Sequence record: NC_052661.1
DNA length: 64,000 nucleotides
Strand: one strand, 5' to 3'
Origin: Escherichia phage ukendt
Notes under the pieces: model-generated
What the model was told of the DNA's origin: nothing
Seen by the model: only the letters and a program-made list of their open reading frames with translations
Databases searched by the model: none
In this document: positions 2,177 to 55,995 of the stretch, in pieces
Layout of the letters: the number at the start of each line of letters is the position of its first letter
Position numbering within the stretch: position 1 is the stretch's first letter
Made by a program: the position numbers and the translations under genes

Positions 2177-2532
2177 TAGTATAATCCCTCGCTAAATAAT
2201 TCATGATCGTGACCATTACGCTCATGGTCGATCTGGTCAGCATTTTCCGCGATGATGTAAGCATCCGCACGACTCCACCAATTGTAATACTGATCGATAA
2301 AGCCTTGATTATCTGGTGTGCACAAAGTTTTGTTGATTACACCTGCTTCTTTCAACACGTTTAACTGTGCATATAGTACAGGATTTGCATGTCGAACACA
2401 AGGAATAATTAACTCTTCACCATTATTCAAAATATACTTATTTGCAGCACAGACGATAACACGTTGCGCATAATGACCCTCACCCATCCAGGTAAGAGGT
2501 TGGTAACAAATATTGTTTTCAATACCACTCAT
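2176..2532 (-). CDS. hypothetical early protein
   Basis: 118-aa ORF, start overlaps stop of downstream gene; no recognisable motif. Confidence 0.4.
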   Translation of the reverse strand: MSGIENNICYQPLTWMGEGHYAQRVIVCAANKYILNNGEELIIPCVRHANPVLYAQLNVLKEAGVINKTLCTPDNQGFIDQYYNWWSRADAYIIAENADQIDHERNGHDHELFSEGLY

Positions 2533-2691
2533 TGTTTCCTAATCCTCCTCTCTTAAGTTATCCTCGAAAAAACTAGTGTCTGGAAGTAAAAGATCATTAC
2601 TTGTGTCGGGCCAATCCTCTTCTTCTCGGTAGATAAAGTAACCTTCGTCCTCTTCTTGTTCCGACCAAACCGAATGATGCATGTTCTCTCC

Positions 2692-3048
2692 TTAATAGTG
2701 CACACGAATCATTTTAATACCATAACGCAGCATGGATTCTTTTGCAAGCATGAATTTATCCCCAGCGGCGGGATTAGAAGTATGCACGAAAATGGTAGGT
2801 GAACCAAAGCAAGGTTTACCAAACGCCAAAAGTTCTTCCAGGCGCAGGAAAACATCATACCCATCTTGGTCAGAATCTTCACCCAAATCGTTGTCAAAAT
2901 GCCACTCGTCTACAAAACGATAACCCTTCTGCACCTCGTTCATGTAGCGAGAGGCAAGAAGTTCCTGTGATGTTTTAAACCAGATTGCATCTGGACAACC
3001 ATAATCTTTTGGATCACGTAAATCATCAAGCCAAATAATAGTACCCAT
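2692..3048 (-). CDS. hypothetical early protein
   Basis: 118-aa ORF in the co-directional early block; function not recognisable. Confidence 0.4.
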   Translation of the reverse strand: MGTIIWLDDLRDPKDYGCPDAIWFKTSQELLASRYMNEVQKGYRFVDEWHFDNDLGEDSDQDGYDVFLRLEELLAFGKPCFGSPTIFVHTSNPAAGDKFMLAKESMLRYGIKMIRVHY

Positions 3049-3058
3049 ATAACCTCCT

Positions 3059-3529
3059 CTAAGCTGGCATGATTAAAAAAGAACTCTCCACTTCAAAATG
3101 CCAATCATCTACAAGCCCTGATTCCCAATCCTTCTCTTCATGGAAAGAGCAAATCCAACGGTACATACCTGGCGGTGTATTCTCAACATCTTCTGGCAAC
3201 CCATAATCCAAAGCTGTCTTACCGTTCTCGGTAAAACCAGGATGGAGATTAGGAGCTTTCAGTACAGAAACCATACCTCCAACATCTACAGCCACGATCC
3301 ACTCTGTCATGTATGGGCTGTCATATTGAGGCTCATCAGAACCTACCTCAACAGCCTCTGTGCGTAAGATGATAATAGCCTGCTCTGTGATTGGGGCTTT
3401 GACAATATACCCGTGATCCTCAAAAAGATCGATAACCTCGAACTCATCGCCGTTTTCGATACCATAGCTCTTATTCAAAGAGATAAACTTCGGGTTATCA
3501 TCGTAAGCTTTAGTTACTTTAATTTTCAT
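3059..3529 (-). CDS. hypothetical early protein
   Basis: 156-aa ORF, acidic; tightly packed with neighbours. Confidence 0.4.
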   Translation of the reverse strand: MKIKVTKAYDDNPKFISLNKSYGIENGDEFEVIDLFEDHGYIVKAPITEQAIIILRTEAVEVGSDEPQYDSPYMTEWIVAVDVGGMVSVLKAPNLHPGFTENGKTALDYGLPEDVENTPPGMYRWICSFHEEKDWESGLVDDWHFEVESSFLIMPA

Positions 3530-3750
3530 TTTTCCTCCTTCACTTTAACCTCAAATTCTACAGGCTTACCCTCAATGTAAAAACACTGATACTCTGCCTT
3601 ATCATCCTCATCACGAGGCCAAGTTACCAAGGAGTTATAGCAATCTTCTGGTGCTTTGAAGATGGTTTTAGTCTCCACAGTAACATTCCCATTAAGTGTT
3701 GCCAATACCACCCACCCAGCTACAGGGATCATAGTGCCTCCACTTTCCAC
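3526..3750 (-). CDS. hypothetical early protein
   Basis: 74-aa ORF; 4-nt start/stop overlap with neighbour. Confidence 0.35.
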   Translation of the reverse strand: MESGGTMIPVAGWVVLATLNGNVTVETKTIFKAPEDCYNSLVTWPRDEDDKAEYQCFYIEGKPVEFEVKVKEEK

Positions 3751-10218: not shown

Positions 10219-10227
10219 GGAGGGAAT

Positions 10228-12303
10228 GTGGCAAAGAAAAAGGCAGCAGGTAGTTTAGCTGGAGTAGATATTGAAGTAAAGGCTCAACCAGGTAAACAGA
10301 CTCTTGCAATGGATTTAATGCCAGAAGTTATGATTTATGGTGGTGCCGCTGGATGTGTTTCTGCTGAAACGGAATATCTTACAAAAGATGGTTGGAGACA
10401 GATTAGTGAATATTCGGGAGAAGATATTTACCAATACAACCCTAAGAATAAGCGTTTAGAATTGGTAACACCTTACTTTGTAGAATACGATTTAAATGGA
10501 GATAATCTATACAGAATAACAAATGGTGTAGGATTGTTCCAAGAACTTAGTATGGAACACCGTTTTGTATTCTATAAGAAAAAGAAATCAAAGAAACATT
10601 TCGAGATTCTTGTAGGAGATCTTATTGCATTACAGCAAATAGGAAAACCCCTGCAAGGTTATGTAGAAAATCCATTCGGTAAACGTGTTCCTTTTAACAT
10701 ACCTGGTAAAAAGAGCACTTACTTAAAAATACACGAGGTTATTTCAACAGATGATAAGAAATATTGTTTTGAGACTCCAAGCAGCTATATTGTCTTTAGA
10801 CGTGGCGATCACTGCTTCGTTACTGGGAATAGCGGCAAGTCTCGTCTGCTATTGCTGAAAGCTTTAAAATACGCCTACAAAGACCCTTTGTTTGGTGGAA
10901 TACTTTTCCGTAAGAACACCACTGCTCACCGTAAACCAGGTGGTCTGTTTACAGAAGCAAAACGTTTGTATCTTCCTTTACAACCGCACGTAAAAGAAAG
11001 TACAATGGATATCATTTTTGAAGCCACTGGCGGTGGAACCCTCAAATTTGACCATTTGGAAAACGATAACGTAACCGCAGAAACAAACCATCAGGGTACA
11101 CAGTATTCAATGGTAGGTTTTGACGAGTTAACCCACTTCACACAGTATGAAATGCTCTATCTTCTGGGACGTATGCGTTCAGAATCAGAAACAAGCTTCA
11201 TGTTGTGCACATGTAACCCCGATGCAGATAGTTGGGTTTTGAATTGGGTACTACCTTATCTCGATGAGGGCGGTTATCCTAGAGAAGATATGTGTGGTAA
11301 ACAAAAATATTTCATCATTGTTAACGATGAACCTGTTTTTGCTGACACACCTGAAGAACTGAAAGAAAAATATCCAGAAAACTGTTTCATGGAAAACCCT
11401 AATACAGGGGAGACAGTTATTATTGAACCACAAACTTTCGTATTTATCGGTGGGACAATATTTGATAACCCAGAATTGATTAGGCTTAACCCTAATTATT
11501 TAGCACAGCTTAAATCACAAACAGCAATCAAAAGAGCACAACTCTTGGACGGCTGTTGGTTTGCACGTATACAGAAAGAGTCTTTCTTCCAACGTGAATG
11601 GTTGCATAAGATATCTTATAAAGATGTTCCTAATAATCTTAAACTAATGCGAGCATGGGATAAAGCTGTTTCAGTTCCTACAGAAACTTATCGTTATCCA
11701 GACTATACAACATCTGTCAAAATGGGTAAAGACCAAGATGGTAATATCTACATCTTTGGTGACTATGATTATGATGCTGTGGATGAGAAAAGTAAAATTT
11801 TCGGAAGGTTTCGAAGATTACCTGGGGAAAGGGATAACCTGATTCTAAATCAATGTAAGATTGATGGACCAGAAGTTACAGTAGTTCTTCCTAAAGACCC
11901 ATCTGGTGCTGGGACAATAGAATATACAGAGTCTGCAAAGAAACTTATTCTAGAGGGTTTTGTTGTTAAACCGGATGCTATGCCAGGTAACAAGAAAAAG
12001 CTTCAGCGTTTTATGCCTTTTAGTAGTGCGTGTCAAAACGGTTTTGTTTATATTGTTGAAGATTCTTTCCCTAATGTGGAAACTTTAACCCACTTTTATA
12101 AAGAATTGGAATCTTTCAATGGTGAAAGATCTACAGCCACTATTAAAGATGACATTCCCGATGCTGCTGCTTCTTGTTTCAATACTCTGTCAAAAGAGAA
12201 TACTTTCAAAGCAGTAGCTATCCCTGCAACAACAAATGCTCCTACAGGATACAGTAGAATGAACAGCGGATTTCACCAACCGTATAGTGTCCGTAAAAGA
12301 TAA
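10228..12303 (+). CDS. terL: terminase large subunit, interrupted by an in-frame intein
   Basis: GTG start after AAGGAGGG RBS; Walker A reconstituted as GAAGSGKS once residues 43-201 are removed; Walker B MVGFDEL; nuclease-like C-terminal half. Confidence 0.85.
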   Translation: MAKKKAAGSLAGVDIEVKAQPGKQTLAMDLMPEVMIYGGAAGCVSAETEYLTKDGWRQISEYSGEDIYQYNPKNKRLELVTPYFVEYDLNGDNLYRITNGVGLFQELSMEHRFVFYKKKKSKKHFEILVGDLIALQQIGKPLQGYVENPFGKRVPFNIPGKKSTYLKIHEVISTDDKKYCFETPSSYIVFRRGDHCFVTGNSGKSRLLLLKALKYAYKDPLFGGILFRKNTTAHRKPGGLFTEAKRLYLPLQPHVKESTMDIIFEATGGGTLKFDHLENDNVTAETNHQGTQYSMVGFDELTHFTQYEMLYLLGRMRSESETSFMLCTCNPDADSWVLNWVLPYLDEGGYPREDMCGKQKYFIIVNDEPVFADTPEELKEKYPENCFMENPNTGETVIIEPQTFVFIGGTIFDNPELIRLNPNYLAQLKSQTAIKRAQLLDGCWFARIQKESFFQREWLHKISYKDVPNNLKLMRAWDKAVSVPTETYRYPDYTTSVKMGKDQDGNIYIFGDYDYDAVDEKSKIFGRFRRLPGERDNLILNQCKIDGPEVTVVLPKDPSGAGTIEYTESAKKLILEGFVVKPDAMPGNKKKLQRFMPFSSACQNGFVYIVEDSFPNVETLTHFYKELESFNGERSTATIKDDIPDAAASCFNTLSKENTFKAVAIPATTNAPTGYSRMNSGFHQPYSVRKR
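10354..10830 (+). mobile_element. mini-intein (159 aa) inserted in the terminase P-loop
   Basis: Begins with Cys43 (CVSAETEYLTKDGW), S-x-x-H block (SMEH), ends ...HCFVTGN followed by Ser; no endonuclease-sized domain. Confidence 0.75.
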
Positions 12304-51631: not shown

Positions 51632-54600
51632 CTAGTGACAGGACGCCCAGGAGTTACCCACATCATATCCGGCAGTAAGCTGAACATTAAGATTGTAAAA
51701 TTCTCCAGCCTTAGTAACAGCTAAAGCAGCAAGTTCACCTGCCCGACTATAGGCTGTAAACCATCCACCTTTGGGAGATTCATGAATGTTAGCCCAAATT
51801 TGCCCTGTCTCTTTTTCCTTATTATGCTTCCATTCTTCAACTTTAGCAAGGCATTCTTTATCAATTTTCTTTTGTTCTTCAGGATCGTCTACTTTCTTCC
51901 AACCTAATGATTCAGGTGAAAACCATTTAAATTCTACAAGGTTACGAGAAACTTCAAGCTGGGCTTCATCGTGATATGCAATCATTTGTTGCACGAAGTC
52001 TTTATTCTTCCAGTCATCTTTAAAGAAGTCAACACTTAGCCCTTCTTCTTCGATCATGTCGTCATAAATAACCATTGCACGTTTAGCACAGATAACCCCA
52101 CCACTTTGGAACAGAGAGTTAAGAATCGCGTGAGCAGAACGAGTAGGAACCTTACGACCGTCAATACCCAAAACATACTGTTTACCAGTCTTAACCCAGA
52201 AATCGTTTAAACGTTCTTTAAGACGCGCCAGTGGGAATGCAGCTTCCCAGAAAGCATCGAACACCAGTTGCCCTGTGTATTTATCGCTACCAATTGTTTT
52301 AGCAACCTTGTCTGCTTGAGCGCCGTACGTGCAGTTACCTGTCAACGTGATAAAACCATTCTGACGCATAACAAAAGATTCATTCTTGGTTGAGATACAG
52401 AATACATCTGTTACTCGTGAAAAAGCTTTTGTCAACCTCTGTCCTGAAATAGTTTGTCCGTTATTGATTGCCAACGTTAACATGCCATCTTTTTGAACAG
52501 AACCATACGCAATATTACCTGTCATATTGATAGCCAAAGAAACAGCGTCGCTAATCTTACCTTTCTTTTGACGGATAACAAGACTGCCGTTTGGACGCTT
52601 ATGACCATCTGCCATCCAGAATGCCTCTAAGAATGCTTCCAACACAGCTTGACCTTGATTAGCAATTAATGTAGACCAGTCCACTTCGTGCTTATTTTGA
52701 CCCACTTCAACGCCACATTTAGTCAAAAATTCCCTAAACTGACTCTTATTAGGACGTAATGAATGCATCGTTCCAGATACATACTCGTCAAATGTGAAGA
52801 TATCTCCCACAGCCTCACGTGCTTCTTCTAAGAATTTTTTCTCATCTTGATCTACCGTGACTGTAATACCCATTACTTTATTTCTGGCTTTGCCAGACCA
52901 CTTATAGTAGCCATCCGAAAGAAGCCAGCCTAAGAAACGACCTTCTTCCACTGTTAGAGTAGACACCACACCAGATCGCCCTGCTGCAATTATGTTTGAC
53001 TCCGAGTTTAAATCCTCTGTAGATCTACGCTCCACTTGCATATACTTAACATTGTTACCATCTGATCGCATAGTTTTTCTCTGTGCGTTAATCCACATAT
53101 GATCGTTAGTAACTTCTACTTTGAACCACTTGTTACCGAGAGAGACAACTTCTGCATCGTTATAGTCCCACAGCTTAAGAATAGGGGTATATTCGTAAAG
53201 AGCGGTGTGAGTATTATAAGATAAAACTTCATCCCCTACAAAAAGATCTTTACGTTTCTTCCAACCCGTTCTTGTTAACACTTCCGTATTATCTACAGGT
53301 ACACAACCGTATTTAACGCTCTTAGCAGGACCACGTTCAAACTTACGTCCAATAATATCAGTAATATGTTTTGCCATCATAGTATGCACATCGTTTGGTT
53401 TTTCTAACAGAAGTGCATTACAGTAAGCATGATCAGGATTATCATATCTCCACGTATAATGCGACTCAATCTTCGCCTCTAATGAATCAAAGTCATAACC
53501 AATCTGGAAGTATTTAGGAACCTCTACACCAAACAGGTTACGCATTTGCCATCCAAACAAAGAGGTAACACGAGGAATATTGGCTACAGACCTATGCTTC
53601 ATACGAGAGGTTGCTGCATCGCATGTAGCCGCTGGCGTAGGTATACGTCCATCTGCACGAACTGCTGCCAAGAAACCTTTGTTGTATTCTTGATCTTCTT
53701 CGTCTTCTTCCCAATCAGCACCACCGCCTAAAATAGAGTTCCTACGATGCTTATACGTTAAGTATTCTACAATCTGCGTAGCATAAGGAAACTTCTCACC
53801 CAAAGCTTGCAGGTTAGGACAAATTTCTTTTTCCTGACCTTTGGTAAAACATGGGTTAGTCAATACTTTAAGACCGCGACCTTTACCTTTTGCTATACGC
53901 TCTTGAATCTTCCTTTCCAAGGTTTCGGGTGTGCACTCCAGATGATCACAACGATCCTGACAAAAATTAGAAGATAGAGTTTGCTCAACGTAAGCTCGAA
54001 TACCTTTCTGAAGTTCTTCCTCACTCTTTTTAATTTTGGTGCCAGATTTAAGCGTCAAGTCTTTATCTTTGTATTCAGACGGTACCCAACCTAATCCTAC
54101 AAGCCAGTTTTTAATATGGGTTGTATCGTTCAATGTTGCAGGGATGTTAGGATCACATAGAGGCTCATCTGCTGCAACTGGCAGTTTCCACTCTTTCCCC
54201 AACATAACTAACCACCAATCTCCATCCCTCTCTTCCAAATGACCATCATGTTTCTTAGCAAAATTGATCATATGGTTAGTTGGCTCTAAGTTCTTTTTAA
54301 TTTGCAACTTAGGTGGAATAAAAGCCTTAAGATAACCTTTTGTTGCTGGTTTAGGTGGCAAAATAGGCTCAACGAGTAAACGAAGACGCTCCATTTCTGC
54401 ATCCAAAAAAGCAAGGTTCTCTTCTGCTTGCTTCATGTTAAAAGCAAACCCACGGTGTTCCTGGCGTGTAATAATGTCTGCTACACGTTGTTCAAGTTCA
54501 AATGGACCTTCCCATTTATCATAATCACCCCACTCTTCCATAAGGTAATTATATACGCTCGTATTGGCTTTGTTGTCATAGATACAGTAATAAAGCATAT

Positions 54601-55201
54601 CAGCAGCAAAAGTCTTAAATCGATCTTCTTCTGGAATCTCTTTACGGAAATCTATTTTTACATCACCTCCTGCCTTTCGAGAAAGTGCTGCCAAGCTATG
54701 TCCTGATTTGCCCTCAATCTTTCGATCTGGGTTTAACACTTTACTCAAAATCAAGGAGTCAATAAGTTTTACCTTATTTTTGCCCCACGTATTATATTTA
54801 ACACTGTAATCTAAGCCATAAAACAGTTTTGTAGCCAACCAGTCATAGTTGATACCGTTGTGAGCCACAGCCATTTCAACCAGATATTCAGGCTTATCTT
54901 TAAAATAACCTTCATGATTAATAAAGTCTGGGAAATCTTTTAGTTGAAAATGTGTGTAATCTTGCGCCACATACTCTTTAAGAACATATGTGTATTTGCC
55001 ATCTGACTCTTCATAAGGACGCCCATCAAAGATGTATTTAGGGCCATCGTGGAAAGCTACTATTTCTCCTGTTTCATGGTTCTCTAAGACAATACAGTGC
55101 ATTTGAAATGTGTCTTTGAGACGATAAGGACTAGCTAAATAATCGATAGTGTCATTATTCAACAAGCCGTTTGCTTCAATATCCCATGTAAACTTACTCA
55201 C
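51632..55201 (-). CDS. family A DNA polymerase with 3'-5' exonuclease domain, interrupted by an intein
   Basis: N-terminal DIEANGL exonuclease motif; motif B reconstituted as RGPAKSVKYG-CTYGAQADKV after removing residues 633-956; motif C YHDE; GTG start overlaps the stop of the upstream methyltransferase. Confidence 0.85.
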   Translation of the reverse strand: MSKFTWDIEANGLLNNDTIDYLASPYRLKDTFQMHCIVLENHETGEIVAFHDGPKYIFDGRPYEESDGKYTYVLKEYVAQDYTHFQLKDFPDFINHEGYFKDKPEYLVEMAVAHNGINYDWLATKLFYGLDYSVKYNTWGKNKVKLIDSLILSKVLNPDRKIEGKSGHSLAALSRKAGGDVKIDFRKEIPEEDRFKTFAADMLYYCIYDNKANTSVYNYLMEEWGDYDKWEGPFELEQRVADIITRQEHRGFAFNMKQAEENLAFLDAEMERLRLLVEPILPPKPATKGYLKAFIPPKLQIKKNLEPTNHMINFAKKHDGHLEERDGDWWLVMLGKEWKLPVAADEPLCDPNIPATLNDTTHIKNWLVGLGWVPSEYKDKDLTLKSGTKIKKSEEELQKGIRAYVEQTLSSNFCQDRCDHLECTPETLERKIQERIAKGKGRGLKVLTNPCFTKGQEKEICPNLQALGEKFPYATQIVEYLTYKHRRNSILGGGADWEEDEEDQEYNKGFLAAVRADGRIPTPAATCDAATSRMKHRSVANIPRVTSLFGWQMRNLFGVEVPKYFQIGYDFDSLEAKIESHYTWRYDNPDHAYCNALLLEKPNDVHTMMAKHITDIIGRKFERGPAKSVKYGCVPVDNTEVLTRTGWKKRKDLFVGDEVLSYNTHTALYEYTPILKLWDYNDAEVVSLGNKWFKVEVTNDHMWINAQRKTMRSDGNNVKYMQVERRSTEDLNSESNIIAAGRSGVVSTLTVEEGRFLGWLLSDGYYKWSGKARNKVMGITVTVDQDEKKFLEEAREAVGDIFTFDEYVSGTMHSLRPNKSQFREFLTKCGVEVGQNKHEVDWSTLIANQGQAVLEAFLEAFWMADGHKRPNGSLVIRQKKGKISDAVSLAINMTGNIAYGSVQKDGMLTLAINNGQTISGQRLTKAFSRVTDVFCISTKNESFVMRQNGFITLTGNCTYGAQADKVAKTIGSDKYTGQLVFDAFWEAAFPLARLKERLNDFWVKTGKQYVLGIDGRKVPTRSAHAILNSLFQSGGVICAKRAMVIYDDMIEEEGLSVDFFKDDWKNKDFVQQMIAYHDEAQLEVSRNLVEFKWFSPESLGWKKVDDPEEQKKIDKECLAKVEEWKHNKEKETGQIWANIHESPKGGWFTAYSRAGELAALAVTKAGEFYNLNVQLTAGYDVGNSWASCH
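52334..53305 (-). mobile_element. intein (324 aa) with LAGLIDADG homing-endonuclease domain, inserted in polymerase motif B
   Basis: Starts CVPVDNTEVLTRTGW, T-x-x-H block (VTNDH), two LAGLIDADG-like motifs (LGWLLSDGY, LEAFWMADGH), ends FITLTGN followed by Cys. Confidence 0.8.
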
Positions 55202-55995
55202 TATTCCTCCTTTCTAATGTTCTCCAGAACCCACTGAAGTTCTTTTAAACTTAAACTTCTTACTCCCGCAGTTTTACTAGCTTCCGCTTTAAGTAACGGG
55301 TAAGCTTCAATGATACGCGTTTTAAGATCAGAAGTCAAGGCTTTTAAAAAATAGGTAGATGCTTCAGATAAAGAATCTTCTTCTGTTAGCACTTTACCTG
55401 CGCTTGCTCCGGCTCTCCTAACAGCTATGTCGTAGTCTTTGCTGTTACCTAATACGAACAGTCGATTCTCTCCTAAAACAACGGGAGAACGCTTCTGGCT
55501 GCGTTTAATCCATATTTGGAATACACAAGGAACATCCCAAGGTTCTCCATGAAGAATAAAAGATCCTTTGGGACACTCTTCTTCGTGAAGAAGATGCATA
55601 TAAGGATTTAGTTTGTGTGCAAAAAAGATTTTTTGAAATGTGCGAGGTAAGATAAAACAAATACCACCTTCGTTATCCAGCATTTCAGCACAATGGTTAA
55701 AGAACTTAATGGCAAGACTAGCGTTTTTTCCGAATGGAGGATTACCAACAAAAGCCGTTACACTACCAACAGACTCAACAGATTGAGCTAAAAAATCTGC
55801 CTCAATACAATCTTCAAACTTAGGGTCAATATCAAAAGAAGTTATGTTTTTAAAACAAGAAGAGAAAGCTCCTTCTCCCGCAGATGGTTCTACGTAGTTA
55901 GCTTCCTCTCCAAAAATTTCTTTGATCTTATCACATAAGAACCCCGCATAAGCGGGGTTAGTGTAATATTGATCAAGTGTGTTCAACTTGCTCAA
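55201..55995 (-). CDS. amino-methyltransferase (probable DNA N6-adenine or N4-cytosine methyltransferase)
   Basis: AdoMet-binding EPSAGEGAF precedes catalytic VGNPPFG (NPPF), the gamma-class motif order; 264 aa. Confidence 0.7.
   Translation of the reverse strand: MSKLNTLDQYYTNPAYAGFLCDKIKEIFGEEANYVEPSAGEGAFSSCFKNITSFDIDPKFEDCIEADFLAQSVESVGSVTAFVGNPPFGKNASLAIKFFNHCAEMLDNEGGICFILPRTFQKIFFAHKLNPYMHLLHEEECPKGSFILHGEPWDVPCVFQIWIKRSQKRSPVVLGENRLFVLGNSKDYDIAVRRAGASAGKVLTEEDSLSEASTYFLKALTSDLKTRIIEAYPLLKAEASKTAGVRSLSLKELQWVLENIRKEE

Follow-up and report, generated by a model that had tools for sequence, protein, structure and literature searches.

Inteins in replicative polymerases, homing by LAGLIDADG endonucleases, phage inteins with a penultimate Gly, and a polymerase intein at another site within the phage subfamily Stephanstirmvirinae are all already known or annotated. 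Here we examined a 324-codon insert in the family A DNA polymerase gene of Escherichia phage ukendt (NC_052661.1), using a stretch of 64,000 nucleotides (nt) of this record (hereafter the window, numbered from its first letter). An earlier note on the window, made from its letters alone, had taken this insert for an intein with a LAGLIDADG endonuclease located in motif B of the polymerase. Our analysis leads to the same identification, and we consider it very likely that the insert is a functional, mobile two-domain intein, composed of a HINT splicing domain and a LAGLIDADG homing endonuclease, in motif B of the replicative polymerase.

An experimentally studied homologue is the intein in the RDF (phosphoesterase) of mycobacteriophage Bethlehem, which is numbered gp51 in Kelley et al. 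(2016) and gp52 in AY500153. It is homologous over its full length (317 vs 324 amino acids (aa); E-value of 1e-36 with a hidden Markov model (HMM) of the intein family) and reads C...ITANHRV...EVWCLRV...HLTGN|S. It shares with the window insert the first residue Cys1, the T-x-x-H block, a block F “[VW]-aromatic-Cys” located 21 residues before Asn, the L-T-G-N end, and a nested LAGLIDADG endonuclease. It differs in that the host protein is a phosphoesterase/RDF instead of a polymerase, position B:12 is Val instead of Trp, the +1 residue is Ser instead of Cys, and the carrier is an actinobacteriophage instead of a coliphage. This intein splices to completion in Escherichia coli, and its endonuclease is toxic to E. 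coli unless inactivated (PMC5050341). Replacement of its penultimate Gly with His slowed splicing to hours, and disulfide-bonded precursor conformers were observed for the mutant (PMC5050341). Since splicing is faster with Gly than with His, the Gly-Asn terminus is a known and functional variant among phage inteins.

Archaeal family B polymerase inteins (PI-PkoII and PI-TliI) and PI-SceI similarly combine a HINT domain with a two-motif LAGLIDADG endonuclease, interrupt a catalytic motif of their host protein, which is a replicative polymerase or the VMA ATPase, and are the best structural matches to our insert. They differ from it in their unrelated host enzyme (PolB or ATPase), their canonical penultimate His and block F Asp, and a sequence identity of 9–16%. 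Within the subfamily, the polymerases of phages phi92, PaulScherrer, and SD2 contain an intein of the same intein family (~33% identity) with the residues C1, H-R-W, V-W-C, and T-G-N|C. The polymerase family is also the same, whereas this phi92-type intein sits just after motif A, ~45 residues upstream (…EAKIESHY|C…ITITGN|CWRYEQ…), is 245 aa long, and occurs in 34 GenBank records. It is annotated as “intein-containing DNA polymerase precursor” in MZ501100 and PQ821640 (BASEL phage PaulScherrer and phage SD2). For the motif B intein, no intein or mature-peptide annotation was present in the GenBank/RefSeq records examined, in which the insert-bearing gene is labeled “DNA polymerase I”, “putative DNA polymerase/3'-5' exonuclease domain”, or “hypothetical protein”. 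No description of it turned up in literature searches on inteins in Phapecoctavirus, Justusliebigvirus, or phage family A polymerases, and according to a 2024 paper none had yet been described from coliphages (PMC11162368).

Results and Discussion

Insert and Host Polymerase

The polymerase open reading frame (ORF) spans 51632..55201 on the (−) strand of the window and encodes a family A DNA polymerase of 1189 aa. The insert corresponds to aa 633–956 and runs from 53305 down to 52334 on the same strand, which gives 972 nt or 324 stop-free codons, exactly the position and the in-frame length that had been assigned to it. It reads CVPVDNTEV...NGFITLTGN between the flanks ...ERGPAKSVKYG on the N-side and CTYGAQADKVAKTIG on the C-side. 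All of the landmarks described in the earlier note were located where it had placed them, namely the starting Cys, the T-N-D-H block (T66 and H69), LGWLLSDGY, LEAFWMADGH, and the terminal TGN followed by another Cys. Removal of the insert in silico left 865 aa, agreeing both with the length of about 865 aa anticipated after splicing and with the intein-free polymerase of phage ESCO13. The junction peptide predicted for this spliced polymerase is SVKYGCTYGAQADK.

The N-extein (53306..55201, (−) strand; 632 aa) carries the 3'-5' exonuclease region and, besides motif A (DFDSLE, aa 570), the initial half of motif B (RGPAKSVKYG), while the C-extein (51632..52333, (−) strand; 233 aa plus stop) comprises the second half (CTYG) and motif C (YHDE). 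The two exteins are matched separately by PHROG polymerase families (PHROG 17 DNA polymerase, E 1e-102, and PHROG 16667 DNA polymerase I, E 5e-81), and the Pfam DNA_pol_A profile also supports the former. For the precursor, this Pfam profile scored 30.9 bits (cut-off 34.3) with an alignment ending at aa 634. After in-silico splicing, the score rose to 50.9 bits in a single contiguous alignment covering profile positions 89–345. The motif B pattern was likewise absent from the precursor, including any second intact copy elsewhere in the protein, and occurred exactly once in the spliced sequence as RGPAKSVKYGCTYG (RGPAKSVKYG|CTYG). Motif B and an above-threshold contiguous polymerase match thus both emerge on removal only, as expected for an insert that splits this motif. 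Because the precursor is translated as one 1189-aa chain with a split motif B, its nucleotide-binding helix is not intact. We take the insertion point to lie approximately between the equivalents of Gly763 and Leu764 of E. coli Pol I, two residues before the conserved Tyr766 and midway along the O-helix, where the incoming dNTP is bound. This presumed placement is based on an alignment with E. coli Pol I RRSAKAINFGLIYG and T7 RDNAKTFIYGFLYG. Base composition was uninformative, as the G+C content was 40.0% for the intein and 39.4% and 42.2% for the exteins.

Predicted Fold of the Insert

A phmmer search matched the center of the insert to the intein endonuclease PI-PkoII (2cw7; E 1.2e-3), in which both LAGLIDADG motifs were aligned with their acidic residues kept (FLGWLLSDGY to LLGYYVSEGY and FLEAFWMADGH to FLEGYFIGDGD). 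The AlphaFold2 model of the insert, constructed with eight sequences, showed a mean pLDDT of 83 and a pTM of 0.84, and its endonuclease domain was modeled confidently save for short loops at approximately aa 135–139, 155, and 275–290. When this model was compared with the PDB using Foldseek, the best matches were all endonuclease-containing inteins, ranging from E 6e-16 to 9e-8 (TliVMA at 6e-16, PhoVMA, PI-SceI, PI-PfuI, and PI-PkoII), followed by the free-standing LAGLIDADG enzymes I-DmoI and I-Tsp061I at ~3e-5. The class 3 AceL NrdHF intein ranked first among the mini-inteins. As modeled, the insert is a bipartite intein in which a two-motif LAGLIDADG endonuclease is nested in a HINT splicing domain. 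The intein with LAGLIDADG endonuclease that the earlier note had proposed is therefore well founded on Cys1, T-x-x-H, the terminal Asn, and the +1 Cys, together with the predicted fold and the motif-for-motif alignment with PI-PkoII.

The whole intein (52334..53305, (−) strand; Cys1...Thr322-Gly323-Asn324), delimited by the exact insert missing in the ESCO13 and phAPEC8-type alleles and by AlphaFold2/Foldseek, can be divided into three parts. The N-terminal HINT splicing lobe (~aa 1–105; 52991..53305, (−)) contains Cys1 of block A and Thr66-x-x-His69-x-Trp71 of block B, as assigned from family conservation and the alignment with the MP-Be intein described below. The LAGLIDADG endonuclease domain (~aa 119–281; 52463..52951, (−)), assigned by phmmer and Foldseek, contains LGWLLSDGY at aa 124–132 and LEAFWMADGH at aa 226–235. 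The C-terminal splicing lobe (~aa 289–324; 52334..52441, (−)) contains Cys303 of block F within VFC and Thr322-Gly323-Asn324 of block G, as judged from conservation and an alignment with 6zgq. In an alignment of eight sequences (A1), A-D-G of the second LAGLIDADG motif was invariant (8/8), and the first motif was conserved in the six sequences that retain it. Every residue required for splicing and for LAGLIDADG catalysis is present, and all are strongly conserved.

Alleles with and without the Insert

The window phage is a phAPEC8-like coliphage (Stephanstirmvirinae, Phapecoctavirus), and the nearest records for the polymerase gene are those of phages AV126, nieznany, and nepoznato (98.4–98.8% nucleotide identity). 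The insert is present in approximately 10 of roughly 130 related GenBank records. Intein-free alleles are found in dozens of related phages (~95–96% nucleotide identity), including phAPEC8, ESCO13, and tuntematon, which match the gene in two pieces totaling 2598 nt, that is, 3570 minus exactly 972 nt. The ESCO13 polymerase is annotated as 865 aa, and a residue-by-residue comparison gave extein identities of 98.3% and 99.6% to the window separated by a clean gap of exactly 324 residues. A 60-aa query spanning the uninterrupted junction further identified ~121 records with an unoccupied site at an identity of at least 90%. These homologues without the insert show that it is not a normal subdomain of this polymerase.

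The +1 residue is Ile in intein-free alleles of both genera that we compared, Phapecoctavirus and Justusliebigvirus (KYG-I-TYG; ATC or ATT, as in ESCO13 and SD2), and Cys in the intein-bearing alleles (KYG-[intein]-C-TYG; TGC, as in the window and phage phiWec187). The empty site in phAPEC8, ESCO13, and SD2 reads …AAATACGG[G/T]AT[C/T]ACTTATGGTGC… at the DNA level. Since the intein-free alleles have Ile at this position, the intein uses no pre-existing nucleophile. Judging from these alleles, the Cys codon (52331..52333, (−) strand) is carried with the intein within a short 3' conversion tract, and the mature polymerase would keep an Ile-to-Cys scar in its O-helix.

These alleles also bear on two other readings of the insert, either as a polymerase subdomain specific to this lineage or as an intron acting at the nucleic-acid level and accompanied by a free-standing endonuclease gene. 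T7-type polymerases do have inserted accessory domains, and the polymerase coding sequence of Pseudomonas phage KIL1 (L008, 737-3844) is annotated as a two-piece join, as if an intron were present. The insert of the window, however, is in frame and stop-free with intein catalytic residues at both ends, no alternative-frame ORF of at least 60 aa was found in its interior, its fold is that of HINT plus LAGLIDADG, and homologues with 98% identity precisely lack it. The KIL1 sequence also reads through in frame with the ends C...TGN|C, so that its two-piece join is probably a misannotated intein. We hence regard a subdomain or an intron as extremely improbable. The in-frame ends with catalytic residues, the HINT plus LAGLIDADG fold, and the precise absence in homologues led us to reject three readings of the insert, as a polymerase subdomain, as a group I intron carrying a homing endonuclease gene, and as a chance ORF.

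Five GenBank records labeled “Campylobacter phage”, namely A150, A145, C3, A110a, and B15 (MG065639, MG065645, MG065656, MG065689, and MG065650; genomes of ~146–151 kb), have polymerase genes 86–95% identical to those of Stephanstirmvirinae coliphages, and their host label looks doubtful.

Probable Homing Footprint

The intein protein is 99.7–100% identical across phages of the two genera. Phage phiWec187 of Justusliebigvirus carries an intein identical to that of the window at 323/324 aa and 971/972 nt, between exteins of 77% and 86% protein identity only. In the following, positions count from the intein, with negative numbers upstream of it and positive numbers downstream. The window and phiWec187 showed 100% nucleotide identity from −228 to +19, outside which the identity fell abruptly to the inter-genus background of ~75–80%. 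Compared with the intein-free ESCO13 of the same genus, the window gene showed ~98% identity interrupted by a dense run of mismatches from −397 to −1 and by further ones at +0, +1, +5, +8, +11, and +14. The mismatches between phiWec187 and SD2, which belong to one genus and of which the latter has an empty motif B site, were similarly clustered at approximately −217 to +11. The segment from −397 to −229 of the window matches neither genus, and the donor should therefore be a third lineage. Read from these comparisons, at least two gene-conversion events, each centered on the intein, are recorded at this site. The conversion tracts are strongly asymmetric in both recipient lineages, extending over ~230–400 nt 5' of the intein and <20 nt 3' of it, an asymmetry that may stem from where the endonuclease cuts or from selection acting on the C-extein. 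Based on the comparisons with ESCO13 and phiWec187, the upstream tract of foreign N-extein sequence was placed at 53306..53702 (−) and the downstream tract, which includes the +1 codon, at 52314..52333 (−). To judge from the aligned genes, the near-identical intein and its adjoining tracts are the footprint of recent homing, as expected when homing is initiated by an endonuclease.

A different account of this distribution is that the splicing domain works while the homing endonuclease is dead, the intein being inherited vertically or by ordinary recombination. Decayed endonucleases are common in inteins, only about 10 of the roughly 130 related records carry the intein, and the Pfam LAGLIDADG_3 match is below its threshold. 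This account nevertheless has to accommodate the acidic residues kept in both LAGLIDADG motifs of a domain that is confidently modeled except for a few short loops, an intein protein of 99.7–100% identity in two genera with conversion tracts hugging the insert, and the toxicity of the homologous Bethlehem RDF endonuclease in E. coli. A dead endonuclease is thus improbable in our estimation, and an active homing endonuclease is preferred.

Proposed Splicing and Homing

Several points weigh against a functional, mobile intein. Its splicing and its DNA cleavage are both deduced from sequence. The Pfam Hint match scored 12.8 bits, below the cut-off, the LAGLIDADG_3 match scored 18.6 bits vs a cut-off of 22.5, and scans of the insert alone against NCBIfam and PHROGs returned no meaningful match, so that profile libraries alone would have missed the intein. 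The penultimate residue is Gly323 in place of the usual His, which is common though not universal in inteins, and Cys303 occupies block F:4 in place of the Asp usual for class 1 inteins. The Trp/Cys/Thr triplet of class 3 type raises the possibility that the chemistry is no plain class 1 pathway, as discussed below. Lastly, the flanking mosaic could in principle have arisen by ordinary recombination that happened to include the intein. On the other side, nieznany, nepoznato, AV126, and phiWec187 were isolated as viable phages, and their polymerase must therefore presumably mature. From these viable intein-bearing phages, and by analogy with the experimentally spliced homologue, we infer that the window intein splices autocatalytically.

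In the reaction we propose, Cys1 would undergo an N-to-S acyl shift to form a thioester with Gly−1, and the N-extein would be passed to Cys+1 by trans-thioesterification. Cyclization of Asn324 and an S-to-N shift would then yield the 865-aa polymerase containing ...KSVKYG-C-TYGAQ.... During co-infection, the endonuclease would cut the uninterrupted site of intein-free polymerase alleles, and repair from the intein-bearing allele would copy the intein and the +1 Cys codon together with flanking sequence, a long stretch 5' of the intein and <20 nt 3' of it. The comparative footprints suggest that such homing occurred recently in at least two backgrounds of Stephanstirmvirinae, Phapecoctavirus and Justusliebigvirus.

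Intein Family

An exhaustive HMMER search of 1.84 billion representative sequences detected 1764 related clusters at E ≤ 1e-3, of which 609 were at E ≤ 1e-10. A word-indexed protein search found 7 relatives only, and the exhaustive search was needed to obtain the full family. Conservation was counted on 148 aligned sequences, which are the window intein and 147 of the best hits among the 1764. Cys1, Thr (T66) and His (H69) of block B, and Cys of block F (C303) were each present in 148/148 sequences, the last being as conserved as Cys1 and the block B His. The Trp two residues after this His (W71) was found in 146/148, followed by the antepenultimate Thr (T322; 142/148), the penultimate Gly (G323; 146/148), and the terminal Asn (N324; 147/148). 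The +1 residue was Cys in 68, Thr in 41, and Ser in 39 sequences, so that Ser/Thr accounts for 54%.

Approximately 100 of the 148 sequences lie in motif B of family A polymerases, at insertion points varying by at least one residue, and the remainder lie in other exteins. The motif B relatives, which include Pseudomonas phages KIL1-5, Vibrio phages VPMCC14 and VnaP, and ~100 metagenomic clusters, belong to the same intein family (26–56% identity) and occupy the same polymerase helix, whereas their insertion point is shifted by 1 to 4 residues and their +1 residue may be Ser or Thr. The inteins of P0006 and P0018 are inserted one residue earlier than that of the window, while the KIL1 intein lies four residues upstream in motif B (RKDGKT|CNYASVYNAG). 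The phi92-type intein, which is related and occupies a non-allelic site, was located at 3001-3735 in SD2 (L004), at 2504-3238 in PaulScherrer (L009), and in phi92 gp159. None of the four directly compared Stephanstirmvirinae polymerases contained both inteins, and the window polymerase has Thr at the +1 position of the motif A site.

Four metagenomic relatives of 343–355 aa (P0004, P0005, P0081, and P0123) are free-standing, with no exteins and with both LAGLIDADG motifs intact. Their splicing residues are degraded, as they lack Cys1 and the terminal Asn, read G-S-D-Q in block B, and have the block F Cys changed to Ser or Gly. Judged by sequence, these proteins resemble yeast HO in being stand-alone homing endonucleases apparently derived from inteins.

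Cys1 and the WCT Triplet

Class 3 inteins are defined by a missing N-terminal nucleophile. They are also defined by the WCT triplet, which consists of Trp at B:12, Cys at F:4, and Thr at G:5 (PMC2807308). The window intein has the full triplet as W71, C303, and T322, a feature that the earlier note had missed. Position 1 is nonetheless an invariant Cys, which is the N-terminal nucleophile of class 1 and is presumably used as such. The window intein was therefore not filed as class 3, since Cys1 is present and invariant.

The correspondence with class 3 inteins was found in several regions. With the family HMM, the His and Trp of block B fall on His65 and Trp67 of the MP-Be “DnaB” intein. This class 3 prototype was located in Bethlehem gp11 (terminase, TerL) and verified by S62, H65, W67, C320, T339, H340, and N341. 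Blocks F and G of MP-Be and Npu DnaE were left unaligned by hmmalign to the family mini-profile, and these blocks were assigned by a C-terminus-anchored alignment, by spacing, and by the HMM alignment with 6zgq. The spacing from this Cys to the terminal Asn is 21 residues in the window intein, the mini-intein in the window terminase, the Bethlehem RDF intein, and MP-Be (C320 to N341), and the published numbers of Msm DnaB-1 (C118 and N139) and Mle DnaB (C124 and N145) give the same value. When the endonuclease-deleted family profile was searched against all PDB sequences, the best match was the class 3 AceL NrdHF intein (6zgq; E 2.6e-7), whose residue 124, mutated in the crystal (C124A), aligns with C303. 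The class 3 inteins MP-Be, Msm/Mch DnaB1, and AceL NrdHF share with our family the WCT triplet, the 21-residue spacing, and the phage association, and the solved mini-intein that our family matches best is of class 3. Class 3 inteins differ in having no N-terminal nucleophile, usually a penultimate His and a +1 Ser/Thr, and a location mostly in P-loop ATPases.

The literature consulted says little about the combination of Cys1 with the triplet. Tori et al. mentioned three inteins that have WCT along with Ser1 or Cys1, whose mechanism they left untested (PMC2807308), and the design of a 2020 survey covering 1701 class 3 inteins shut out sequences with Cys1 (PMC7891396). Beyer et al. state that WCT is confined to class 3 and argue against a class 1 origin (PMC7664689).

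Splicing may deviate from plain class 1 chemistry, with Cys303, together with Trp71 and Thr322, serving as an essential nucleophile or relay. In one variant, Cys303 would attack the N-terminal junction directly as in class 3, so that Cys1 is dispensable or auxiliary. In the other, it would take the N-extein from the Cys1 thioester and hand it to the +1 residue. A related possibility is a redox switch via a Cys1-Cys303 or Cys303-Cys+1 disulfide, with which the disulfide-bonded precursor conformers of the homologous RDF intein mutant are consistent. Such a role of Cys303 finds support in the conservation of all three residues (148/148, 146/148, and 142/148 for C303, W71, and T322), the alignment with His65/Trp67 of MP-Be, the spacing common to MP-Be, Msm, and Mle DnaB, AceL NrdHF being the best solved mini-intein by both sequence profile and fold, the class 3-like share of +1 Ser/Thr (54%), and the three Ser1/Cys1 inteins whose mechanism Tori et al. 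left open (PMC2807308). The invariant Cys1, however, argues for its own use, given that class 3 is defined by having no such nucleophile. The Thr at B:7 is of class 1 type, Kelley et al. place the homologous RDF intein in class 1, the F:4 Cys could merely replace Asp as a hydrogen-bonding residue, and the profile search at E ≤ 1 brought up no structure of a canonical class 3 DnaB intein. On balance, an essential Cys303 appears possible but doubtful; the residue may act as nucleophile or relay, take part in a redox pair, or simply stand in for the usual Asp. A more speculative view, which we put forward only tentatively as rather unlikely, is that the Cys1-WCT phage family is a survivor of the “standard phage intein” lineage that has been proposed as the source of class 3 inteins, or that it employs a two-cysteine relay (Cys1 to Cys F:4 to +1) outside the three textbook classes. 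The class 1 route from Cys1 to Cys+1 described above is still the pathway that we propose for the window intein.

Other Features of the Window

A second intein of the same superfamily (family HMM E 2e-12) is present in the window, in the ORF of the terminase large subunit (stop-to-stop 10219..12300). It is a mini-intein of 159 aa at 10354..10830 (+) with no endonuclease domain, and splits the Walker A P-loop (…IYGGAAG|CVSAETEY…HCFVTGN|SGKSRLL…). It has Cys1, a block B of S-M-E-H-R-F with Phe instead of Trp at B:12, a T-G-N end, and a +1 Ser. The Gly-Asn terminus that the earlier note had described as common to the terminase and polymerase inteins was recognized here as well. Directly upstream of the polymerase, a gene at 55201..55995 (−) overlaps the polymerase start by 1 base, and in the records of nieznany and phAPEC8 the corresponding gene bears the annotation of a putative DNA N6-adenine methyltransferase.

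Conclusions

As long as the intein is unannotated, comparative and phylogenetic work on therapeutic-candidate coliphages inherits a 324-aa artefact in the polymerase. The locus also preserves a clear natural trace of probable intein homing from one phage genus to another, with mapped, strongly asymmetric tracts and a nucleophile codon that was carried in. A fast-splicing mesophilic intein with a penultimate Gly and Cys+1 may hold modest interest for protein engineering. If the ancestral-lineage or two-cysteine-relay view of the Cys1-WCT family is true, it would bear on the dispute over how class 3 inteins originated, by divergence from class 1 or by convergence. With many natural sequences that combine Cys1 with the class 3 triplet, both the part played by the block F Cys and the way in which class 3 inteins came about become testable in an easy E. 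coli/coliphage system.

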